NCBI GenBank assembly: GCA_964549075.1
Contig: CAZJUB010000001.1
Coordinates: 1 to 28,815 of the forward strand
Length of the DNA: 28,815 bases
Source: an uncultured archaeon
GTDB taxonomy: Archaea > Asgardarchaeota > Heimdallarchaeia > Heimdallarchaeales > Heimdallarchaeaceae
Reading direction: 5' to 3'
Positions within the stretch are counted from its first letter, which is position 1. The number at the start of each line of letters is the position of its first letter. Shown one piece after another: positions 1,170-7,760 of the stretch. Made by a program: the position numbers and the translations under genes. A model generated the notes under the pieces. The model saw only the letters and a program-made list of their open reading frames with translations, ran no database searches and had not been told where the DNA came from.

Positions 1170-1667
1170 TTAATCAAAATTTTTTGTATTTACTTCTACT
1201 ATTTTCTGACATGCCACACAAAGGGAAGAAGGTTTGTGTTTTGCTTCTTTCAGATTATTAGAATATTGCATTACACATGCACTCTGACAATGTTCTAAAC
1301 CCAAGATATGCCCACATTCATGAATACTTTCTTTTATTTTCATCTCAGTTGATTCTAAACGATAAAAAGACACTAATGCTCCATAATATTGTGTTGCTAA
1401 TCCAAAAACAAAATTCATTACAGGTACATATAAATCATCTTTTATTATCCAGAAGAAAAATCTGTAATTTTCTTTATCTATTAAATGATTCAAAAGATCT
1501 TGACCATTATATTGTTTTCTTGACCAGTTATAAGCTCTAAGATTTGGTCTTAAGCTTCTAACCGCTTTTATTTCAAGCTTATATATTTTTACCATTTGTT
1601 TAATAATTTCCTCAATTTCATTTCTATCCAGATTTGGATCAAATAAAACAGTCAGTGGTGGAAACAT
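1170..1667 (-). CDS. amzA: Archaemetzincin (peptidase M54) zinc metalloprotease
   Basis: HECGHILGLEHC-x3-CVM motif, distal CxxC (CVAC), NFVFGLA and RxQY motifs typical of archaemetzincins. Confidence 0.92.
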   Translation of the reverse strand: MFPPLTVLFDPNLDRNEIEEIIKQMVKIYKLEIKAVRSLRPNLRAYNWSRKQYNGQDLLNHLIDKENYRFFFWIIKDDLYVPVMNFVFGLATQYYGALVSFYRLESTEMKIKESIHECGHILGLEHCQSACVMQYSNNLKEAKHKPSSLCVACQKIVEVNTKNFD

Positions 1668-1715
1668 ATCATGTCCTCTAAATTTAAAACTTAACTTACA
1701 TGAATTAAATGTTAT

Positions 1716-2999
1716 CTATCCAAACACTTTCTTTATTATATCAGATTCTATTTTGTTTTTCTTCGCTATTGCTGCATACATTCTAGCTGAATCTCTAATT
1801 TGTCTTTCTTTTGTCTTGTAGTCAATTCCGATGAGACCAAATCGCGGTTCAAATCCTTCAGCCCATTCCCAATTATCTATTGTCGACCAATAGAAAAAAC
1901 CTTTAACATCTGCGCCATTCTCAATGGCTTTATGAACTTCAAATAGATGTCTTAAAATAAATCTCTGTCTTAAACTATCATCTAAAGTACCAATACCATT
2001 TTCACTAATATAGATAGGACCATTATAACTATTTTTTATTCTCATTATATTTTGGTATAAACCTTCAGGATAGATACCATATCCAAGTTGAGTAATCTCA
2101 GTCTCATCTTCTTCTTTGAAAACCATTTCTACAGGTATTCCAAGCTTAAATTTAAAATAAACAGCGGAATAATAGTTAATTCCAAAAAAATCTATAGTAT
2201 CTTTCATCCAACTTTTGTAAGTAAAAGGTATGAAAGGAACTTTTCCTCTTGTTGCTGCATCTATCGCAACTTGATTATATGTATAGTCTATAAAAGAAGA
2301 AATAATCCTATGCCAAAGTGAACCATGGTCTTTTTGATAGAAATAAGCTAAATTCTTAACAATCCCCACCTGGCTTTTGGGATTATATTTCTTTAATGAT
2401 TTATAAGCTATAGAATGAGCTTTCATCATTATTCGATATACTTTTGTATAAGCAAGAATCGATTTTTTAGCTGGAGGGAATTCACCATATAAATACCCCA
2501 TAAGAGGGACAACACCTGGTTCATTAATTGGGTTCCAAAATTTTATTTCAGGAAAATTTTTCGCAATAATGTCACAATACTGCTGAAAATATTCAAGATT
2601 CTTGTTTTTTAAAAAACCGCCTTTTCTTTCAAACCAAATGGGGATAGTAAAATGATAGAGAGTTACAAATCCTTCTAGATTATTTTTCTTTAAAGATTCA
2701 AACACTTTGTGATAATGTTCAATTTCTTCATCATCTACCTCATTTTCTTCAGGAATTATTCTGCTCCACTCAATTCCAGTTCGATGGGAGTTATGATTAA
2801 GATTACTAAACAATTTGTGGTCATTTTCAAACAATTCGTAATGATTTGCTGATTCTCCACACTTTTCATTATTCTTTATATTTCCTGGAATTTGTTCAAA
2901 TTCATACCAATCATTGTTATAATTGTTACCTTCAGTTTGATAGGCTGATTGTGCTCCACCCCAAAGAAATCCCTCAGGAAACAGATATTCTTTAGTCAT
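1716..2999 (-). CDS. Glycoside hydrolase family 1 beta-glucosidase/beta-galactosidase
   Basis: FPEGFLWG..SAYQTEG N-terminal signature, INEP acid/base, ISENG nucleophile, DNWEWAEGF..RFGL. Confidence 0.95.
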   Translation of the reverse strand: MTKEYLFPEGFLWGGAQSAYQTEGNNYNNDWYEFEQIPGNIKNNEKCGESANHYELFENDHKLFSNLNHNSHRTGIEWSRIIPEENEVDDEEIEHYHKVFESLKKNNLEGFVTLYHFTIPIWFERKGGFLKNKNLEYFQQYCDIIAKNFPEIKFWNPINEPGVVPLMGYLYGEFPPAKKSILAYTKVYRIMMKAHSIAYKSLKKYNPKSQVGIVKNLAYFYQKDHGSLWHRIISSFIDYTYNQVAIDAATRGKVPFIPFTYKSWMKDTIDFFGINYYSAVYFKFKLGIPVEMVFKEEDETEITQLGYGIYPEGLYQNIMRIKNSYNGPIYISENGIGTLDDSLRQRFILRHLFEVHKAIENGADVKGFFYWSTIDNWEWAEGFEPRFGLIGIDYKTKERQIRDSARMYAAIAKKNKIESDIIKKVFG

Positions 3000-3075
3000 T
3001 GAGATTATTTTATTTATCTTCTTTTAAACCTTTAGAGAACAAAAATTTTTAAACTGAAAATTTGCTCCTCTCTCA

Positions 3076-4239
3076 ATGAATAATAAATCTTGGAATATTC
3101 TAATGGTTGTATTAAGTTCAGTCAACCCAGATGTTAGAGTGGAAAAGGAAGCTAGATATTTAGCAAGTAAAGGACACAAAGTTACAGTGATAGGAACCAA
3201 TGCTAGAGGAAATTTAGCTGAAGAAGAATCAAGAGATGGTTATACTATTATCAGAGTTCCAAGTAAGAAAAAGTTATTTTTTAAATATTTTGAGTTTTGG
3301 AAAAATGTTCGAGAAGTTGTTAAAGAGCAAAAATTCGATATAATTCATCTGCATGACTTAAATGTTCTACCTCTTTATTCTAAACTAAAAAAGAACACAA
3401 AAATAACGATTTATGATAGCCATGAAAATTTCCCAGAACAAATGTCTGAAACATATGGATTTCTTGGATTATGGGGATATTCAATGGTAGAGAGATTTTA
3501 TGTTAAACGAGTGCAAGGTATTGTTACTGCTGGCATCACATACTCTGAAAATTTGGAGCGTAAATATAATGTAAGAAGTAGATGGATAGCAAATTATCCT
3601 TCTAAAATAGATGTTGAAAAAGCTCATGAAAAGATAATCCCAAAGCAATTTCAAGATAAAACAAGATTCCGTGTGGTTCATTTTGGAGTTATGTATCATA
3701 ATCTTGGATATGATAAAACAGTTGAAGCAGTGAAAATACTAAGTAAACAATTGAAATCTAACAAAATAGAATTTTTAGTCATGGGATCTGGTTCTTCTTT
3801 AGAACCAATGAAACAGCTAATTATCCAGTTTAATTTAGAAGAATACTTTACTTTAACTGGATGGATGAACTATCATGAAGCTCTTTCAATCATGCGCTCC
3901 TGTGATATTGGTTTAATTCTATTTCAACCAGGAAAAAATAACTATCTTAGAATACCTAACAGACTTTATGAATATGCTTCAGCTGGAATTCCTTTCATAG
4001 GTTCCAATTTTGAAGGTCTAAAGCGTTCAATTCAATCAAGGGAGGAAATGGGTATTCTGATTGATCCAACTTCTCCAGAAGAGTTAGTTAATGCAATTCT
4101 TGAAGTTTATAATAACAAGGAGAAACTAGATAAAATGAAACAGATAGCTGCAGAAGCGTATAAAGAACAATTTAACTGGGAAAGCGAAATACCAAAAATC
4201 ATTCAGAGTTACCAAGAAGCTTTTAATCAGAAAAAATGA
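3076..4239 (+). CDS. Glycosyltransferase family 4 (GT-B)
   Basis: DVRVEKEA..L...GH.V.V, DIIHLHD, YDSHE, PNRLYEYASAGIPFI, FNWE motifs. Confidence 0.93.
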   Translation: MNNKSWNILMVVLSSVNPDVRVEKEARYLASKGHKVTVIGTNARGNLAEEESRDGYTIIRVPSKKKLFFKYFEFWKNVREVVKEQKFDIIHLHDLNVLPLYSKLKKNTKITIYDSHENFPEQMSETYGFLGLWGYSMVERFYVKRVQGIVTAGITYSENLERKYNVRSRWIANYPSKIDVEKAHEKIIPKQFQDKTRFRVVHFGVMYHNLGYDKTVEAVKILSKQLKSNKIEFLVMGSGSSLEPMKQLIIQFNLEEYFTLTGWMNYHEALSIMRSCDIGLILFQPGKNNYLRIPNRLYEYASAGIPFIGSNFEGLKRSIQSREEMGILIDPTSPEELVNAILEVYNNKEKLDKMKQIAAEAYKEQFNWESEIPKIIQSYQEAFNQKK

Positions 4240-4241
4240 GA

Positions 4242-5093
4242 TTAAAATCTACGTATAATGTTGAAAATTTGTTCTTCAACCATTGCAGCTTGATCTGATA
4301 CTTCTGAGATATCACTAACTCCTTCAAAGAACTTTGTAAGGATATTCTTTATTTTATCAATACCATATACTAAGTCAGAATATTCTGCAGGATAACCTAA
4401 AGCAACAATACAGTAATCAATTCCTCTAAATCTTGGATCTTTTTGATTCTTATCTTTTACAACATATAGAAAACTCGTTGCGTTATATTGTTTCATTTTT
4501 GGAATTTTTACTGGACCTGAGATAGTTCCTGTTTCAAGCATTTCGAGTTCTCCCATTCCAAAAATAGTGAAAAGTAAAACCCCTAGAGCTAATGTTACTG
4601 TCTCTCTGACATTTTCATATTCACTTGGGATTTTCTCAATATAAATTGGTTCAGTTCCTGATTCTCCAAATCTGTAAAAAGAAACAAAGATTTTATCTAA
4701 ATCATATTTTGATTCTACCTTAGTTACTTTATCAATAGCATTTGGAATCTGGTTGAAGAAACGTCCTCTTTTTACAATATAATCAGAAGCACCCATTTTC
4801 ATCGCATTTACAGCAACTTCTTCAGAACCTTGACCTGTAATAATAAGAACAGGTATTTCTGCTACTTGACGTATTTCTTCGAGTATTTCTAGTCCTGTGG
4901 AATTGACTAAAAGGTAGTCCAGAAGGATTACATCTATGTCATAATTAAGGCCAGAAAGCAGTTTTAGAGTATCTTCTTTCGTTTTAGTGATAAATACTTC
5001 TGCATCAGGATAAGCTTTTAACACATTTATCTTAATTAAGAAGGCTATATCAGCATCGTCTTCGCATAAAAGTATTTTTAATTTATTCTGCAT
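4242..5093 (-). CDS. Response regulator: N-terminal receiver domain plus uncharacterised C-terminal domain (possibly longin/uDENN-like)
   Basis: ILLCEDD acidic pocket, phosphoacceptor in VILLDY, IITGQG, GASDYIVK. The ~150-aa C-terminus is not a recognisable HTH, GGDEF or kinase domain. Confidence 0.88.
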   Translation of the reverse strand: MQNKLKILLCEDDADIAFLIKINVLKAYPDAEVFITKTKEDTLKLLSGLNYDIDVILLDYLLVNSTGLEILEEIRQVAEIPVLIITGQGSEEVAVNAMKMGASDYIVKRGRFFNQIPNAIDKVTKVESKYDLDKIFVSFYRFGESGTEPIYIEKIPSEYENVRETVTLALGVLLFTIFGMGELEMLETGTISGPVKIPKMKQYNATSFLYVVKDKNQKDPRFRGIDYCIVALGYPAEYSDLVYGIDKIKNILTKFFEGVSDISEVSDQAAMVEEQIFNIIRRF

Positions 5094-5153
5094 TGTAGAT
5101 ACTCCAAATTAATATTTGTGATTTCGCTATTTTATCTTTATTATTCTGTCAAC

Positions 5154-6158
5154 CTATTCCAGTAGTCCATCTTCTTTTAGAGATTCTAAAATTTCAGAAA
5201 TCTCATCTTCAAGTTTATCAATTGTATCATCTTTACCTTTTTTAGATTTTTGTGTTTTTCGTCTCTCTTCGATTAAATCTTGAAGGCTGCTTCCATCAGG
5301 AAGATCGACTAGTGTACCACCTACTTTAGATATTTCATCTCTTATCGTTTCAAGTTGGGCTTTTGATTCATCAAAAACATCTTTATCTGGAAGCATTGAA
5401 GCTAATTCTGGTACAGAATCAGTCTTCCCAGCTGGTTGAAGAGAACCTAAATCTTCCAAACCCAATTCTTGGAGTAACCTTTTCTCATCAAGCTCTAATG
5501 CTGAATCTGAAGCTGTAGTAAACTGATCAATCTTGGTTTGAGATTTAGTCATGGGAGTGGAATCAAATTGTATAGTTGCAGTTTCTTTCTGTTTGCAATG
5601 ATGATCTTCTGTAATTGGATGATGAATACCACAATAGGGACAAATTGTCTCATGAAGAGTCTGTATATGAACACCTAATGCTCTTTGATCATGTGTCACA
5701 AAACCACAGTGATTGCATTTCAATAGAGGAATAAAACTCTCAGAAGCTACAAAATCATCGAAGTTAGCATATAGATACCATAAAAGAGAGATTCTAACTG
5801 CTTTGGAAGTACTCCAACCAGTTTTCTTTTTAATGTTCTCTAGACTTTCAGAACTTACTTGATCCTTTAAACGAAAAGAGAGTTTGGTGTCTTTTTTTGA
5901 TTTTGATTCTTCCTCATATCTTTTCATAAGCAGGATTTCAAGTTTTATATAATCATTTAACTCCTCTATGATATTCATTCTATTCTTCATTTTCTTGATA
6001 CGGATAGCTAAATCATCCAATGAAAGTGTAACTATTTGACTAGCTCCCCCAAAACTCTTTGATTGCTCTAAAACAGCATTTTTAAAGTTTTCAGGGATAT
6101 TAATTGTGTATACATTTGATGCTCTTATTTCACCTGTTTGTGGAGGAATCTGCCTCAC
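5154..6158 (-). CDS. Putative DNA-binding protein: two ribbon-helix-helix-like motifs, C2H2 zinc finger, second Cys/His knuckle, acidic low-complexity tail
   Basis: VYTINIPENFKNAVLEQ...SQIV and LSFRLKD...LENIKKKTGWSTSKAVRISL are RHH-like; CNHC-x12-H-x4-H; CPYC..HH..HHC; D/E-rich C-terminal half. GTG start. Confidence 0.65.
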   Translation of the reverse strand: MRQIPPQTGEIRASNVYTINIPENFKNAVLEQSKSFGGASQIVTLSLDDLAIRIKKMKNRMNIIEELNDYIKLEILLMKRYEEESKSKKDTKLSFRLKDQVSSESLENIKKKTGWSTSKAVRISLLWYLYANFDDFVASESFIPLLKCNHCGFVTHDQRALGVHIQTLHETICPYCGIHHPITEDHHCKQKETATIQFDSTPMTKSQTKIDQFTTASDSALELDEKRLLQELGLEDLGSLQPAGKTDSVPELASMLPDKDVFDESKAQLETIRDEISKVGGTLVDLPDGSSLQDLIEERRKTQKSKKGKDDTIDKLEDEISEILESLKEDGLLE

Positions 6159-6284
6159 CTACATCGTATTATTTGTGTATTATCAATTTCTGTATAAAAA
6201 TTTTTTCTATTGAAAGAAATTTAGTAACTCACCATAATATATGAACAATCAAAACCAATATTAAACCATATCTAGATGTTTTTT

Positions 6285-6356
6285 TGAGAGTTTATGATGA
6301 TCATGCACTACTTTGAACAACAGTAAGGCAAGAAAAACGGGGATCTGAGACTCTCA
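6285..6356 (+). ncRNA. Box C/D 2'-O-methylation guide sRNA
   Basis: Box C ATGATGA (6294-6300), D' TTGA (6313-6316), box D CTGA (6345-6348), perfect 7-bp terminal stem TGAGAGT (6285-6291)/ACTCTCA (6350-6356), archaeal-type size, intergenic. The D' guide TCATGCACTACT is complementary to the SSU rRNA helix 34 GUGCAUG region. The C' box is degenerate. Confidence 0.8.
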
Positions 6357-6361
6357 CTAAA

Positions 6362-6808
6362 TTATTTTTGAATTAAATTAATCTCAAGTGGAATACCGTT
6401 TTTTACACTCTGAGAAACTATGCAATAATCCTCGTACATTTCTTTACATTTTTTATAGTCAGAACCTTCCTTTTCCTCTACCGTTGGCTCTAAATCCACA
6501 TGTATTTTAGATATTCTCCAGAATCCATTTTCATTTCTTTTACGAGTAAGCTTTACAGTGGTTTTTAGTTCTTGAATCTCAACTCTTTTTTTAGTCGCAC
6601 AGAAAGTCAAAGAAGCTGATAAACAATTGCCTACAGCAGCAGCGAGTAACATTGATGCTGTTGGACCTCTCCCTTCTCCTCCTGGGATAGAAGGAGGTTC
6701 ATCAGTCAATAGTTTTGGGATTTGATCTGACTCAAAATCTACTTCAAACTTGTAATTGTCTTTTCTTCTCATTTCAATAACATATTCAAATTCATGACTT
6801 TCTGACAT
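6362..6808 (-). CDS. OsmC/Ohr-like family protein
   Basis: TDEP...GGEGRGPT...LLAAAVGNC and YEDYCIVSQSV: the two conserved Cys of the OsmC family. Confidence 0.9.
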   Translation of the reverse strand: MSESHEFEYVIEMRRKDNYKFEVDFESDQIPKLLTDEPPSIPGGEGRGPTASMLLAAAVGNCLSASLTFCATKKRVEIQELKTTVKLTRKRNENGFWRISKIHVDLEPTVEEKEGSDYKKCKEMYEDYCIVSQSVKNGIPLEINLIQK

Positions 6809-6833
6809 TTAATCACCACACTTCAAATAACTC

Positions 6834-7760
6834 TTAATCTCCAGATATCAAGATATCATCTAAAACATCTTCTAAATCTGGTCTATCAGGTGGTTTTTCT
6901 GGTTTCTCATACTCACCTTCAGTGATGGCATCAGATAGATCCAGATCAGCTTTCCCTCGTCTTCTGGTTGGTGTAGATACAACCATTGTTCCACTTAAAT
7001 TCTCTATTTTATCGTTTATCTCCATTACCAAATTAACTAACTTTGATATTTGATCATTACTGAAACCTTCAACATCAAGTAAATCTGTTCGTGCTTGATT
7101 TTCAAAACTTGGAACTGCTTCTTGAGCAGCTGCTGCTATTGCTTTAGATTCAGAACTAATTCCGTTTTCTACTATTGCTTCACTTTTCTCTTGATATGAC
7201 ATAGCTTTAGCAGCTTTTGCAGCAATTGCTTCAGTTGGGAAGAGTTCAGTCAGTTCTGCAAGAACTTGTTGCTGATTAGTTTCATTTAATAAAAATATTT
7301 TGTCTTTAAGATCATCCCTCTCATTTATCAAATCTTCAAACTCATTTTCTAATGCAGAATATTTGTCTTTAACTAGCTTGTTTTCTTGATTTAAAAGCTT
7401 AATTAGTTTGATTAATTTTGGAAGTCCTCTAGCTAGTTCAGTAGCGTTGTTCTGCATTTCTTTATATCTAGCTACAGAAACAAGTTTAACACCTTTTTTG
7501 TTTTGTTCTTTGAATTCTTCTTCAAGTCCTTCTACTCTCTTTTTCAAATCTCTATTTTGGACTAGTAATCTTTCAACTAACAATTTTACTTTTCTAAGAG
7601 CTTCAAGAAGGATTCTATTTCTTTCTTGTAACTCTTTCACATCTGATTCTGTGAAATTATTTTCACTTAAAATTTCTTCAAAATCTTGCTCTTCTTCATC
7701 ATAGGATTGCTGAATTTTTTTAAGAAGTTTTTCCTCCGGATTGAGTCCTGTGTAATTCAT
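6834..7760 (-). CDS. Long coiled-coil protein of unknown function with an internal repeat and acidic C-terminal tail
   Basis: Heptad-rich E/K/L composition over ~aa 40-170, Ala-rich linker, short second helical segment, tail EKPEKPPDRPDLEDVLDDILISGD. Confidence 0.75.
   Translation of the reverse strand: MNYTGLNPEEKLLKKIQQSYDEEEQDFEEILSENNFTESDVKELQERNRILLEALRKVKLLVERLLVQNRDLKKRVEGLEEEFKEQNKKGVKLVSVARYKEMQNNATELARGLPKLIKLIKLLNQENKLVKDKYSALENEFEDLINERDDLKDKIFLLNETNQQQVLAELTELFPTEAIAAKAAKAMSYQEKSEAIVENGISSESKAIAAAAQEAVPSFENQARTDLLDVEGFSNDQISKLVNLVMEINDKIENLSGTMVVSTPTRRRGKADLDLSDAITEGEYEKPEKPPDRPDLEDVLDDILISGD

Follow-up and report, generated by a model that had tools for sequence, protein, structure and literature searches.

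A conserved Asgard archaeal box C/D-type small RNA predicted to guide methylation in helix 34 of 16S ribosomal RNA

Between two minus-strand genes of the 28,815-nucleotide (nt) stretch of DNA analysed here, which we call the window (contig CAZJUB010000001.1 of assembly GCA_964549075.1, from an uncultured archaeon of the Asgard family Heimdallarchaeaceae), lies an element at 6285-6356 of the plus strand that resembles a gene for a box C/D small RNA (sRNA). The locus raises the question of whether this element is a real RNA gene, whether the RNA guides 2'-O-methylation of 16S ribosomal RNA (rRNA), and whether it descends from the same ancestral gene as the eukaryotic small nucleolar RNAs (snoRNAs) that act at the equivalent site. 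Comparison with relatives makes it very likely that the element is a real, conserved C/D-type RNA that pairs with helix 34 of 16S rRNA. The same comparisons suggest that it is probably an independently transcribed box C/D sRNA that guides methylation of the helix-34 G before UGCAUG.

The element is about 72 nt long and shows the anatomy of a box C/D-type sRNA gene. The boxes C, D' and D and the 7-base-pair stem described by an earlier reading of this DNA, made from the letters alone, were all found in place, as follows.

6285-6291, plus strand: 5' half of the terminal stem (TGAGAGT), forming 7 Watson-Crick pairs with 6350-6356
6292-6293, plus strand: spacer TT
6294-6300, plus strand: box C (ATGATGA), matching RUGAUGA near the 5' end
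6301-6312, plus strand: D' (5') guide of 12 nt (TCATGCACTACT), directly after box C
6313-6316, plus strand: degenerate D'-like box (TTGA), which aligns to CUGA of the Rfam families RF00533 and RF00300 and to the canonical CTGA of the related genome G044
6317-6332, plus strand: interior of 16 nt without a canonical C' box
6326-6336, plus strand: degenerate C' region (AGGCAAGAAAA; alignment A4), of uncertain register
6333-6344, plus strand: D (3') guide (AAAAACGGGGAT), apparently an orphan
6345-6348, plus strand: box D (CTGA), matching CUGA near the 3' end
6349, plus strand: spacer G
6350-6356, plus strand: 3' half of the terminal stem (ACTCTCA)

Counting upstream from TTGA, the fifth base is C6308, the base that had been proposed to select the target nucleotide under the rule of the fifth base before box D. 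The predicted fold, whose z-score is -2.3 (3 of 200 shuffled sequences fold equally well), consists of the terminal stem enclosing an open interior.

Searches of Rfam and of Asgard genomes had been suggested as a check. The former returned 0 families at gathering thresholds, whereas the latter yielded copies across the family. At relaxed Rfam thresholds the element has 17 weak matches, 16 of them C/D-box snoRNA families, all on the plus strand and none near its gathering score. A DNA search recovers full-length copies in 15 of the 25 genomes of the genus, and a covariance model (R1) built from 12 genus copies finds the sRNA in 20 of these 25 (own genome included) and in all six genomes from four other genera of the family; a further model, R2, agrees with R1 at E below 1e-8. 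Completeness is 76-90% in the five genus genomes in which no copy was found.

The copies are not conserved evenly along their length. The guide core CATGCACTAC is invariant in 26/26 family copies; changes are seen in the flanks, in the interior and in the D guide. TGATG of box C is invariant in 15 genus copies (alignment A1), with TGACGA, TGAAGA, TGATGT and GGATTG as variants in relatives, and box D does not vary within the genus, with ATGA in its place in genus g13. A lack of box conservation in relatives had been named as grounds for giving up the assignment; boxes C and D are conserved, but box D' is not maintained. The terminal stem shows compensatory changes in 6 of its 7 pairs among 11 diverse copies. 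Its cells are 92.2% paired, compared with 71.5% in shuffles (0/500 as high) and 32-64% in slid controls. This comparative support, from conservation and covariation, argues for a real RNA gene and is decisive over single-sequence statistics.

The target was read from the 16S genes of relatives. All 12 genes examined from the family carry GGTAGTGCATGG at the target stretch, and the 5' strand of helix 34 is GAGAGGTAGTGCATGGCCGTC in each of them. Against the 16S of the same genus, the D' guide of the window forms 10 Watson-Crick pairs flanked by two terminal G-U pairs. Where the sRNA and the 16S gene are both in hand, the central 10 guide bases are all Watson-Crick paired in 14/14 genomes, and a fifteenth genome (G025), read by eye, has 9 contiguous pairs. 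The predicted methylation site is presumably near position 1051 in the E. coli numbering.

Copies outside the family, found with model R2 and two pattern scans, show that guide and target change together in the genomes G040, G038 and G401. The combinations of helix-34 sequence (in DNA letters) and guide are the following.

16S helix 34 GGTAG..., guide ...CTAC: the family and a genome titled Altiarchaeales
16S helix 34 GGTGG..., guide ...CCACC: G038
16S helix 34 GGTGT..., guide ...AACAC: G040
16S helix 34 GGAGG..., guide ...CCTC: a genome titled Wolframiiraptor

The target base that differs in G040 is the very nucleotide predicted to be methylated, and the fifth base of the guide has changed too (A opposite U). 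The register of the D' box is likewise supported by relatives, with a canonical CTGA in G044, G040 and G038 where the window has TTGA. The 16S genes of relatives and the covarying guides both support the pairing of the D' guide with helix 34 that the sequence-only reading had put forward.

The second guide behaves differently from the first. The best match of the D guide is the 16S stretch GTCCCCGCTTTT, with 10 Watson-Crick pairs, one G-U pair and one internal mismatch, and its longest perfect run is 6 nt; 31 of 1000 shuffles match equally well. We take this stretch to lie near E. coli positions 1379-1390. The D guide differs between subclades of the genus, and the matching 16S stretch is constant. 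With an internal mismatch, a score at the level of shuffles and no conservation across subclades, GTCCCCGCTTTT was rejected as a target, and the D guide appears to be an orphan without a conserved target. The sequence-only reading, which could name no target for this guide, was essentially right, the match being weak and not conserved.

The predicted site in helix 34 corresponds to a methylated nucleotide of eukaryotes. In the consensus sequences of RF00533 (fly Me18S-Gm1358) and RF00300 (plant Z221/snoR21b), box C, guide and D' box align in the register of the window, and the guide is identical to the RF00300 consensus at 11 of 12 bases. According to the accessible text and tables of PMC2794176, PMC8817022 and PMC8583080, the 2'-O-methylguanosine (Gm) at Arabidopsis position 1272 (AtsnoR21; Gm1275 in a newer numbering) is equivalent to yeast Gm1271 (snR40), human Gm1328 and Dictyostelium Gm1266, and is a helix-34 nucleotide of the decoding centre, in its A-site region. 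According to the accessible text of PMC4344503, Gm1271 is directed by the snR40 guide that precedes the D' box. That 'snoR21b' of RF00300 is the AtsnoR21 of these tables is suggested by the names. The Rfam consensus register and the tables agree, and sequence alignment supports the predicted methylation site as the equivalent of yeast Gm1271, human Gm1328 and Arabidopsis Gm1272, in line with the assignment made in the sequence-only reading.

Anatomy, conservation, covariation within the stem and between guide and target, and the machinery encoded in the genus point to the following mode of action. Boxes C and D, joined by the 7-base-pair terminal stem, should form a kink-turn, to which L7Ae would bind first, followed by Nop5 and fibrillarin. 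In such a ribonucleoprotein the 12-nt stretch that separates box C from the D'-like box would base-pair with helix 34 of 16S along its 5' strand (GGUAGUGCAUGG in the family; the 16S of the species itself would carry GUAGUGCAUG). The G directly before UGCAUG would then sit opposite the fifth guide base, and fibrillarin would add a 2'-O-methyl group there. Transcription of the gene, assembly of the particle and methylation of the target are predicted on these grounds.

The surroundings of the element are compatible with a gene of its own. The sequence-only reading had described it as antisense to both flanking genes; the opposite orientation stands, but there is no overlap, the element lying wholly between the open reading frames 5154-6158 and 6362-6808, both on the minus strand. 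The product of 6362-6808 is OsmC-like, and that of 5154-6158 has no Pfam family. The sRNA stays between the same two genes though their proteins diverge to 50-60% identity, and genus g13 retains the sRNA with the OsmC-like gene more than 1 kb away. The proteins encoded at 5154-6158 (334 amino acids) and 6834-7760 (308 amino acids), both on the minus strand, are conserved proteins that flank the sRNA/OsmC locus; both are without a Pfam family, and they are syntenic across the genus with 50-87% identity.

Two candidate signals accompany the element.

6257-6265, plus strand: TATA-like promoter element (AATATTAAA), with a core ATATTA at 6258-6263 that ends 22 nt before the first base of the stem
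6365-6369, plus strand: run of five T, a possible oligo-T terminator, overlapping the final codons of the OsmC-like gene, which is convergent

ATATTA is found at the identical offset in 21/21 rows from genera g1 and g10, and at this position the four rows from g11-g13 show AT-rich words that resemble a TATA box. A purine-rich CAAAA stands directly upstream of the TATA-like element in the window. From its spacing, this region may be an archaeal TATA box with a B recognition element, which would place the transcript start near 6284-6288. T-rich runs follow the 3' stem half in most relatives, and the T run of the window may act as a terminator. Scans for bacterial-type signals, uninformative for an archaeon, gave no terminator and 4 promoter-like sites compared with 2.0 expected. 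The putative promoter and the synteny add to the boxes, the stem covariation and the conservation in supporting the identification of the element as a box C/D guide RNA, which had first been made from the sequence alone.

The window is contig 1 of a 3.23-Mb assembly of 217 contigs with 32% G+C and 89.7% completeness. An Asgard host, as proposed earlier, is supported by a match to VPS28 of the endosomal sorting complex ESCRT-I above the Pfam cut-off, which is found in none of 14 control genomes. It is further supported at the level of the phylum, since genomes assigned to the same phylum share an identical pattern match with records titled Thorarchaeota. The Pfam search for profilin gave no match in the genome or the controls and is uninformative as an Asgard marker. 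Genes of the L7Ae family are present in the genome, and nop5 and fibrillarin genes are adjacent in 24/24 other genomes of the genus. Each genus genome has one Nop-domain gene, the one exception being a gene split across two contigs.

The 23S gene is present in the assembly, on contig C65 at 1287-5521 (L001), outside the window. Its match of 4235 nt to a model of 2987 positions implies insertions of more than 1.2 kb, which could be expansion segments or introns. On the minus strand of contig C137, near 4484, there is a second C/D-like candidate, whose terminal stem has 6 base pairs and in which 10 nt match the organism's own 23S perfectly near position 449; it comes from a crude scan that gave 53 candidates, compared with 15 in a reversed-sequence control.

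Several observations weigh against a methylation guide at this locus. The organism's own assembly was searched for a 16S gene and none is assembled, so that the complementarity proposed for its own 16S is seen in that of relatives. Taken by itself, the guide match of the single sequence is modestly unlikely: when shuffled guides are set against same-genus 16S and the organism's own 23S, a 10-nt perfect run arises in 17 of 1000 and an equal pairing score in 31 of 1000. The stronger argument for the target is that guide and 16S covary. Matches to the eukaryotic families fall well below threshold, with 19.8 bits for RF00533 (threshold 50) and 17.7 for RF00300 (threshold 44). Neither Nop5 nor fibrillarin has a match above cut-off in the 89.7%-complete assembly, which a single unassembled operon would explain if that assumption holds. 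The 20 sequencing runs listed for window positions 5200-7700 are all DNA metagenomes, none of them RNA.

The internal boxes are a further point on this side. At the D' position, the 26 family copies read NTGA in 8 cases (TTGA 6, CTGA 1, ATGA 1), TTAA in 14, TCAA in 1, TCGC in 2 and TAGA in 1, so that the D' box is not maintained, with NUGA in only 8/26. In G044 and G043 the counterparts of the C' region are ATGATTG and GATGATTG, and in other relatives they are GCGAT or GTGATAG; a canonical UGAUGA C' box is absent from the window copy, and C' is degenerate in the genus, the UGAU type occurring only in G043 and G044. The guide is thus held fixed while the internal K-loop drifts. Methylation guided from D' in archaea normally expects a canonical C'/D' motif (cf. 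the accessible text of PMC8413462), and the decay of C'/D' suggests that the guide may be kept for pairing rather than for methylation.

This leads to an explanation in which a C/D-type sRNA pairs with helix 34 without directing methylation, acting as an rRNA-folding chaperone that holds the 5' strand of this helix while the 30S subunit assembles. It would account for a guide invariant in 26/26 copies beside a D' box that is NUGA in 8/26 and UUAA in 14/26 and a degenerate C' box, and the single Nop-domain gene per genus genome leaves no room for an asymmetry of the eukaryotic Nop56/Nop58 type. Such a role for archaeal C/D sRNAs has been proposed in the accessible text of PMC4644070. However, the relatives with a canonical CTGA or ATGA D' box and a UGAU-type C' box (G044, G043, G040, G038) keep the same position-5 register, and the guide of G040 has changed at position 5 to match its target, as expected if that pair matters. 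Many eukaryotic snoRNAs, moreover, methylate despite degenerate D' boxes. We therefore regard a purely chaperoning RNA as unlikely, though it deserves to be kept in mind, and methylation of the helix-34 G as the probable function.

Two further explanations question the target or the RNA itself. The helix-34 match might be incidental, with the main target in 23S, a transfer RNA (tRNA) or a messenger RNA. The D' guide does match the organism's own 23S near its 5' end (position 21) at 10 of 12 bases with two internal mismatches, and the target set is incomplete, with 23 tRNAs recovered from an incomplete genome. Within that set, however, the helix-34 match is the best and the sole 10-nt perfect run, and guide and 16S covary in four lineages, unlike an incidental match, which makes a different main target very improbable. 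Still less credible is a conserved DNA element in place of an RNA gene, such as a site at which a regulator binds or a terminator serving the convergent OsmC-like gene. The element does lie 5 nt beyond the OsmC-like stop codon, and its inverted repeat could form a hairpin on either strand, but its conservation is strand-asymmetric and box-shaped, not palindromic. The stem covaries while boxes C and D and the 10-nt antisense to 16S stay fixed, the Rfam matches to C/D families share one strand, and g13 keeps the sRNA away from the OsmC-like gene. A terminator or binding site is accordingly close to negligible as an explanation, and we return to a C/D-type RNA that pairs with helix 34.

How far does this RNA extend beyond the family, and does its distribution speak for descent? 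Convincing copies were found in 26 of 31 genomes of the window's own family (f1, own genome included), 1 of 1 of f2, 3 of 12 of f3 and 1 of 2 of f6, all within one class; in the f6 copy, at a contig end, the guide apparently stands before box D. With searches of limited sensitivity, the sRNA was not recognised in f4 (0/3), f5 (0/22) or f7 (0/12), nor with model R2 in 41 sampled genomes of another Asgard class. The R2 hits in f4, f5 and f7, as well as second hits within the genus, lack box D or the stem or are apparently coding and were rejected. Among the 10 weak R2 hits of the other class, 7 were read and 0/7 show C/D anatomy.

The strict pattern TGATGA-N(0-2)-CATGCACYNCNNTGA, run over 400 genomes of the phylum, hits five genomes, all of f1. 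These are only 5 of the 26 model-found family genomes (own included), and blanks elsewhere mean little because the pattern recovers so few of the known family copies. A second pattern, which requires CTGA at D', hits 9 of the 400 genomes and likewise recovers a minority of the known family copies. Its five hits in f31 lie inside a conserved open reading frame, and the single f31 16S obtained does not fit, which marks them as chance coding matches. At these loci (L119-L123, in relatives titled Thorarchaeota) the look-alike stands in the last codons of the open reading frame of G377 (L123), and the flanks are near-identical in the other four loci. The f31 look-alikes are a warning that pattern hits to the guide can be coding sequence.

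A global scan with a strict pattern, using one genome per prokaryote species, gave 50 loci. The bacterial-titled loci, many of them Chryseobacterium, were taken as chance because bacteria are without C/D machinery. The 13 archaeal loci that were read comprise one from the family member G044, two titled Thorarchaeota, seven of TACK type and three from a single genome titled Altiarchaeales. The two Thorarchaeota-titled loci are the same match as the f31 hits, and the translated example (G377) is coding sequence. The seven TACK-type loci (titled Nitrososphaeria, Wolframiiraptor and Geocrenenecus) have the appearance of genuine sRNAs whose guide precedes box D. The two 16S sequences available from non-Asgard genomes match the guides of those genomes, with GGAGGTGCATGG in G401 and GGTAGTGCATGG in G403.

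The guides of the TACK-type and Altiarchaeales-titled candidates are complementary to this 16S stretch too and share the register of the window guide, which places the same G opposite the fifth base. The TACK-type candidates differ from the window sRNA in having the guide before box D and not D', in being shorter and in their GC-rich stem. At these loci (L130, L132-L134, L149, L151, L167) the D' position is non-canonical, and they lie just upstream of a small gene, which begins MVRVRIFGPLKE in L133. All four boxes (C, D', C' and D) are fully canonical in the Altiarchaeales-titled copies, unlike in the window sRNA, and the three stand on short contigs of very high coverage. After D' these three (L135, L153, L157) have a small hairpin, GCTTTTAAGC, much like that of the class-mate copy in G079 (L095/L118), and they could point to a gene present in several copies, to a mobile context or to mis-binned DNA. 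Among the 489 C/D sRNAs of seven archaea in supplementary file 1 of PMC4644070, as far as that file is accessible, the guide core occurs in two only, neither of them placed for helix 34.

By these sequence matches, a scatter of archaeal lineages is predicted to target the helix-34 site, some through a guide before D' and others through one before box D. Because the guide sequence is dictated by a nearly universal target, homology cannot be read from it, and a scattered distribution with a shifting guide half is what repeated invention would look like. Vertical descent to eukaryotes would predict copies across Asgard lineages and nowhere else in Archaea; the copies we recognised follow another pattern. 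Orthology with snR40, SNORD32 and snoR21 would be expected to show in a score above an Rfam threshold or in likeness beyond boxes and guide, and neither was found. It is therefore doubtful, and in our estimate quite unlikely, that the helix-34 guide RNA of this Asgard class and snR40/SNORD32/snoR21 come from one ancestral gene. The suggestion of an Asgard counterpart to a eukaryotic snoRNA holds only in the sense of a functional analogue; common descent is doubtful, given a likeness forced by the target and the copies in TACK-type and Altiarchaeales-titled genomes.

To our knowledge, archaea and eukaryotes have few individual rRNA ribose-methylation sites in common. The conserved guide of this Asgard RNA is directed at a nucleotide of the decoding centre that carries the methyl group in the 18S rRNA of yeast, human, plant and Dictyostelium, which makes a Gm in helix 34 a testable prediction. 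Full-text literature searching, with subscription journals and bioRxiv supplements outside its scope, found no catalogue of Asgard C/D sRNAs, and within the literature searched this RNA is a first concrete entry in the Asgard repertoire. The combination of a fixed guide with decaying C'/D' boxes offers a natural experiment on how archaeal homodimeric Nop5 particles use a 5' guide, and by extension bears on the ancestors of the asymmetric eukaryotic snoRNPs (small nucleolar ribonucleoproteins). Since some TACK-type and Altiarchaeales-titled genomes have this guide as well, it should not be taken for a signature that links Asgard archaea with eukaryotes. If shared descent were true after all, a specific snoRNA with a 5' guide placement and relaxed C'/D' boxes would predate eukaryogenesis and could be traced from archaea to the nucleolus.

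Compared with known archaeal box C/D sRNAs, the window RNA shares the RUGAUGA box C, the CUGA box D and the terminal stem, the 12-nt antisense guide after box C with its fifth-base rule, a length of about 70 nt, an rRNA target in the region of the decoding centre, and its own putative promoter in an intergenic gap. It differs in several respects: archaeal box C/D sRNAs usually keep both C' and D' (accessible text of PMC7994747), which are degenerate in most of the genus; only one of its two guides has a recognisable target; its terminal stem is long, with 7 base pairs; and no Rfam family reaches its gathering score.

Set against the eukaryotic helix-34 snoRNAs (snR40, U32A/SNORD32, snoR21, RF00533, RF00300), likeness to RF00533 and RF00300 outside the boxes and guide is nil, the second guide has no visible correspondence to the large-subunit rRNA targets of snR40 and U32A, and a guide of the window type is not confined to Asgard archaea. 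What the window sRNA has in common with them is the same predicted nucleotide, the use of the 5' (D') guide, and degenerate C'/D' boxes together with a terminal stem.

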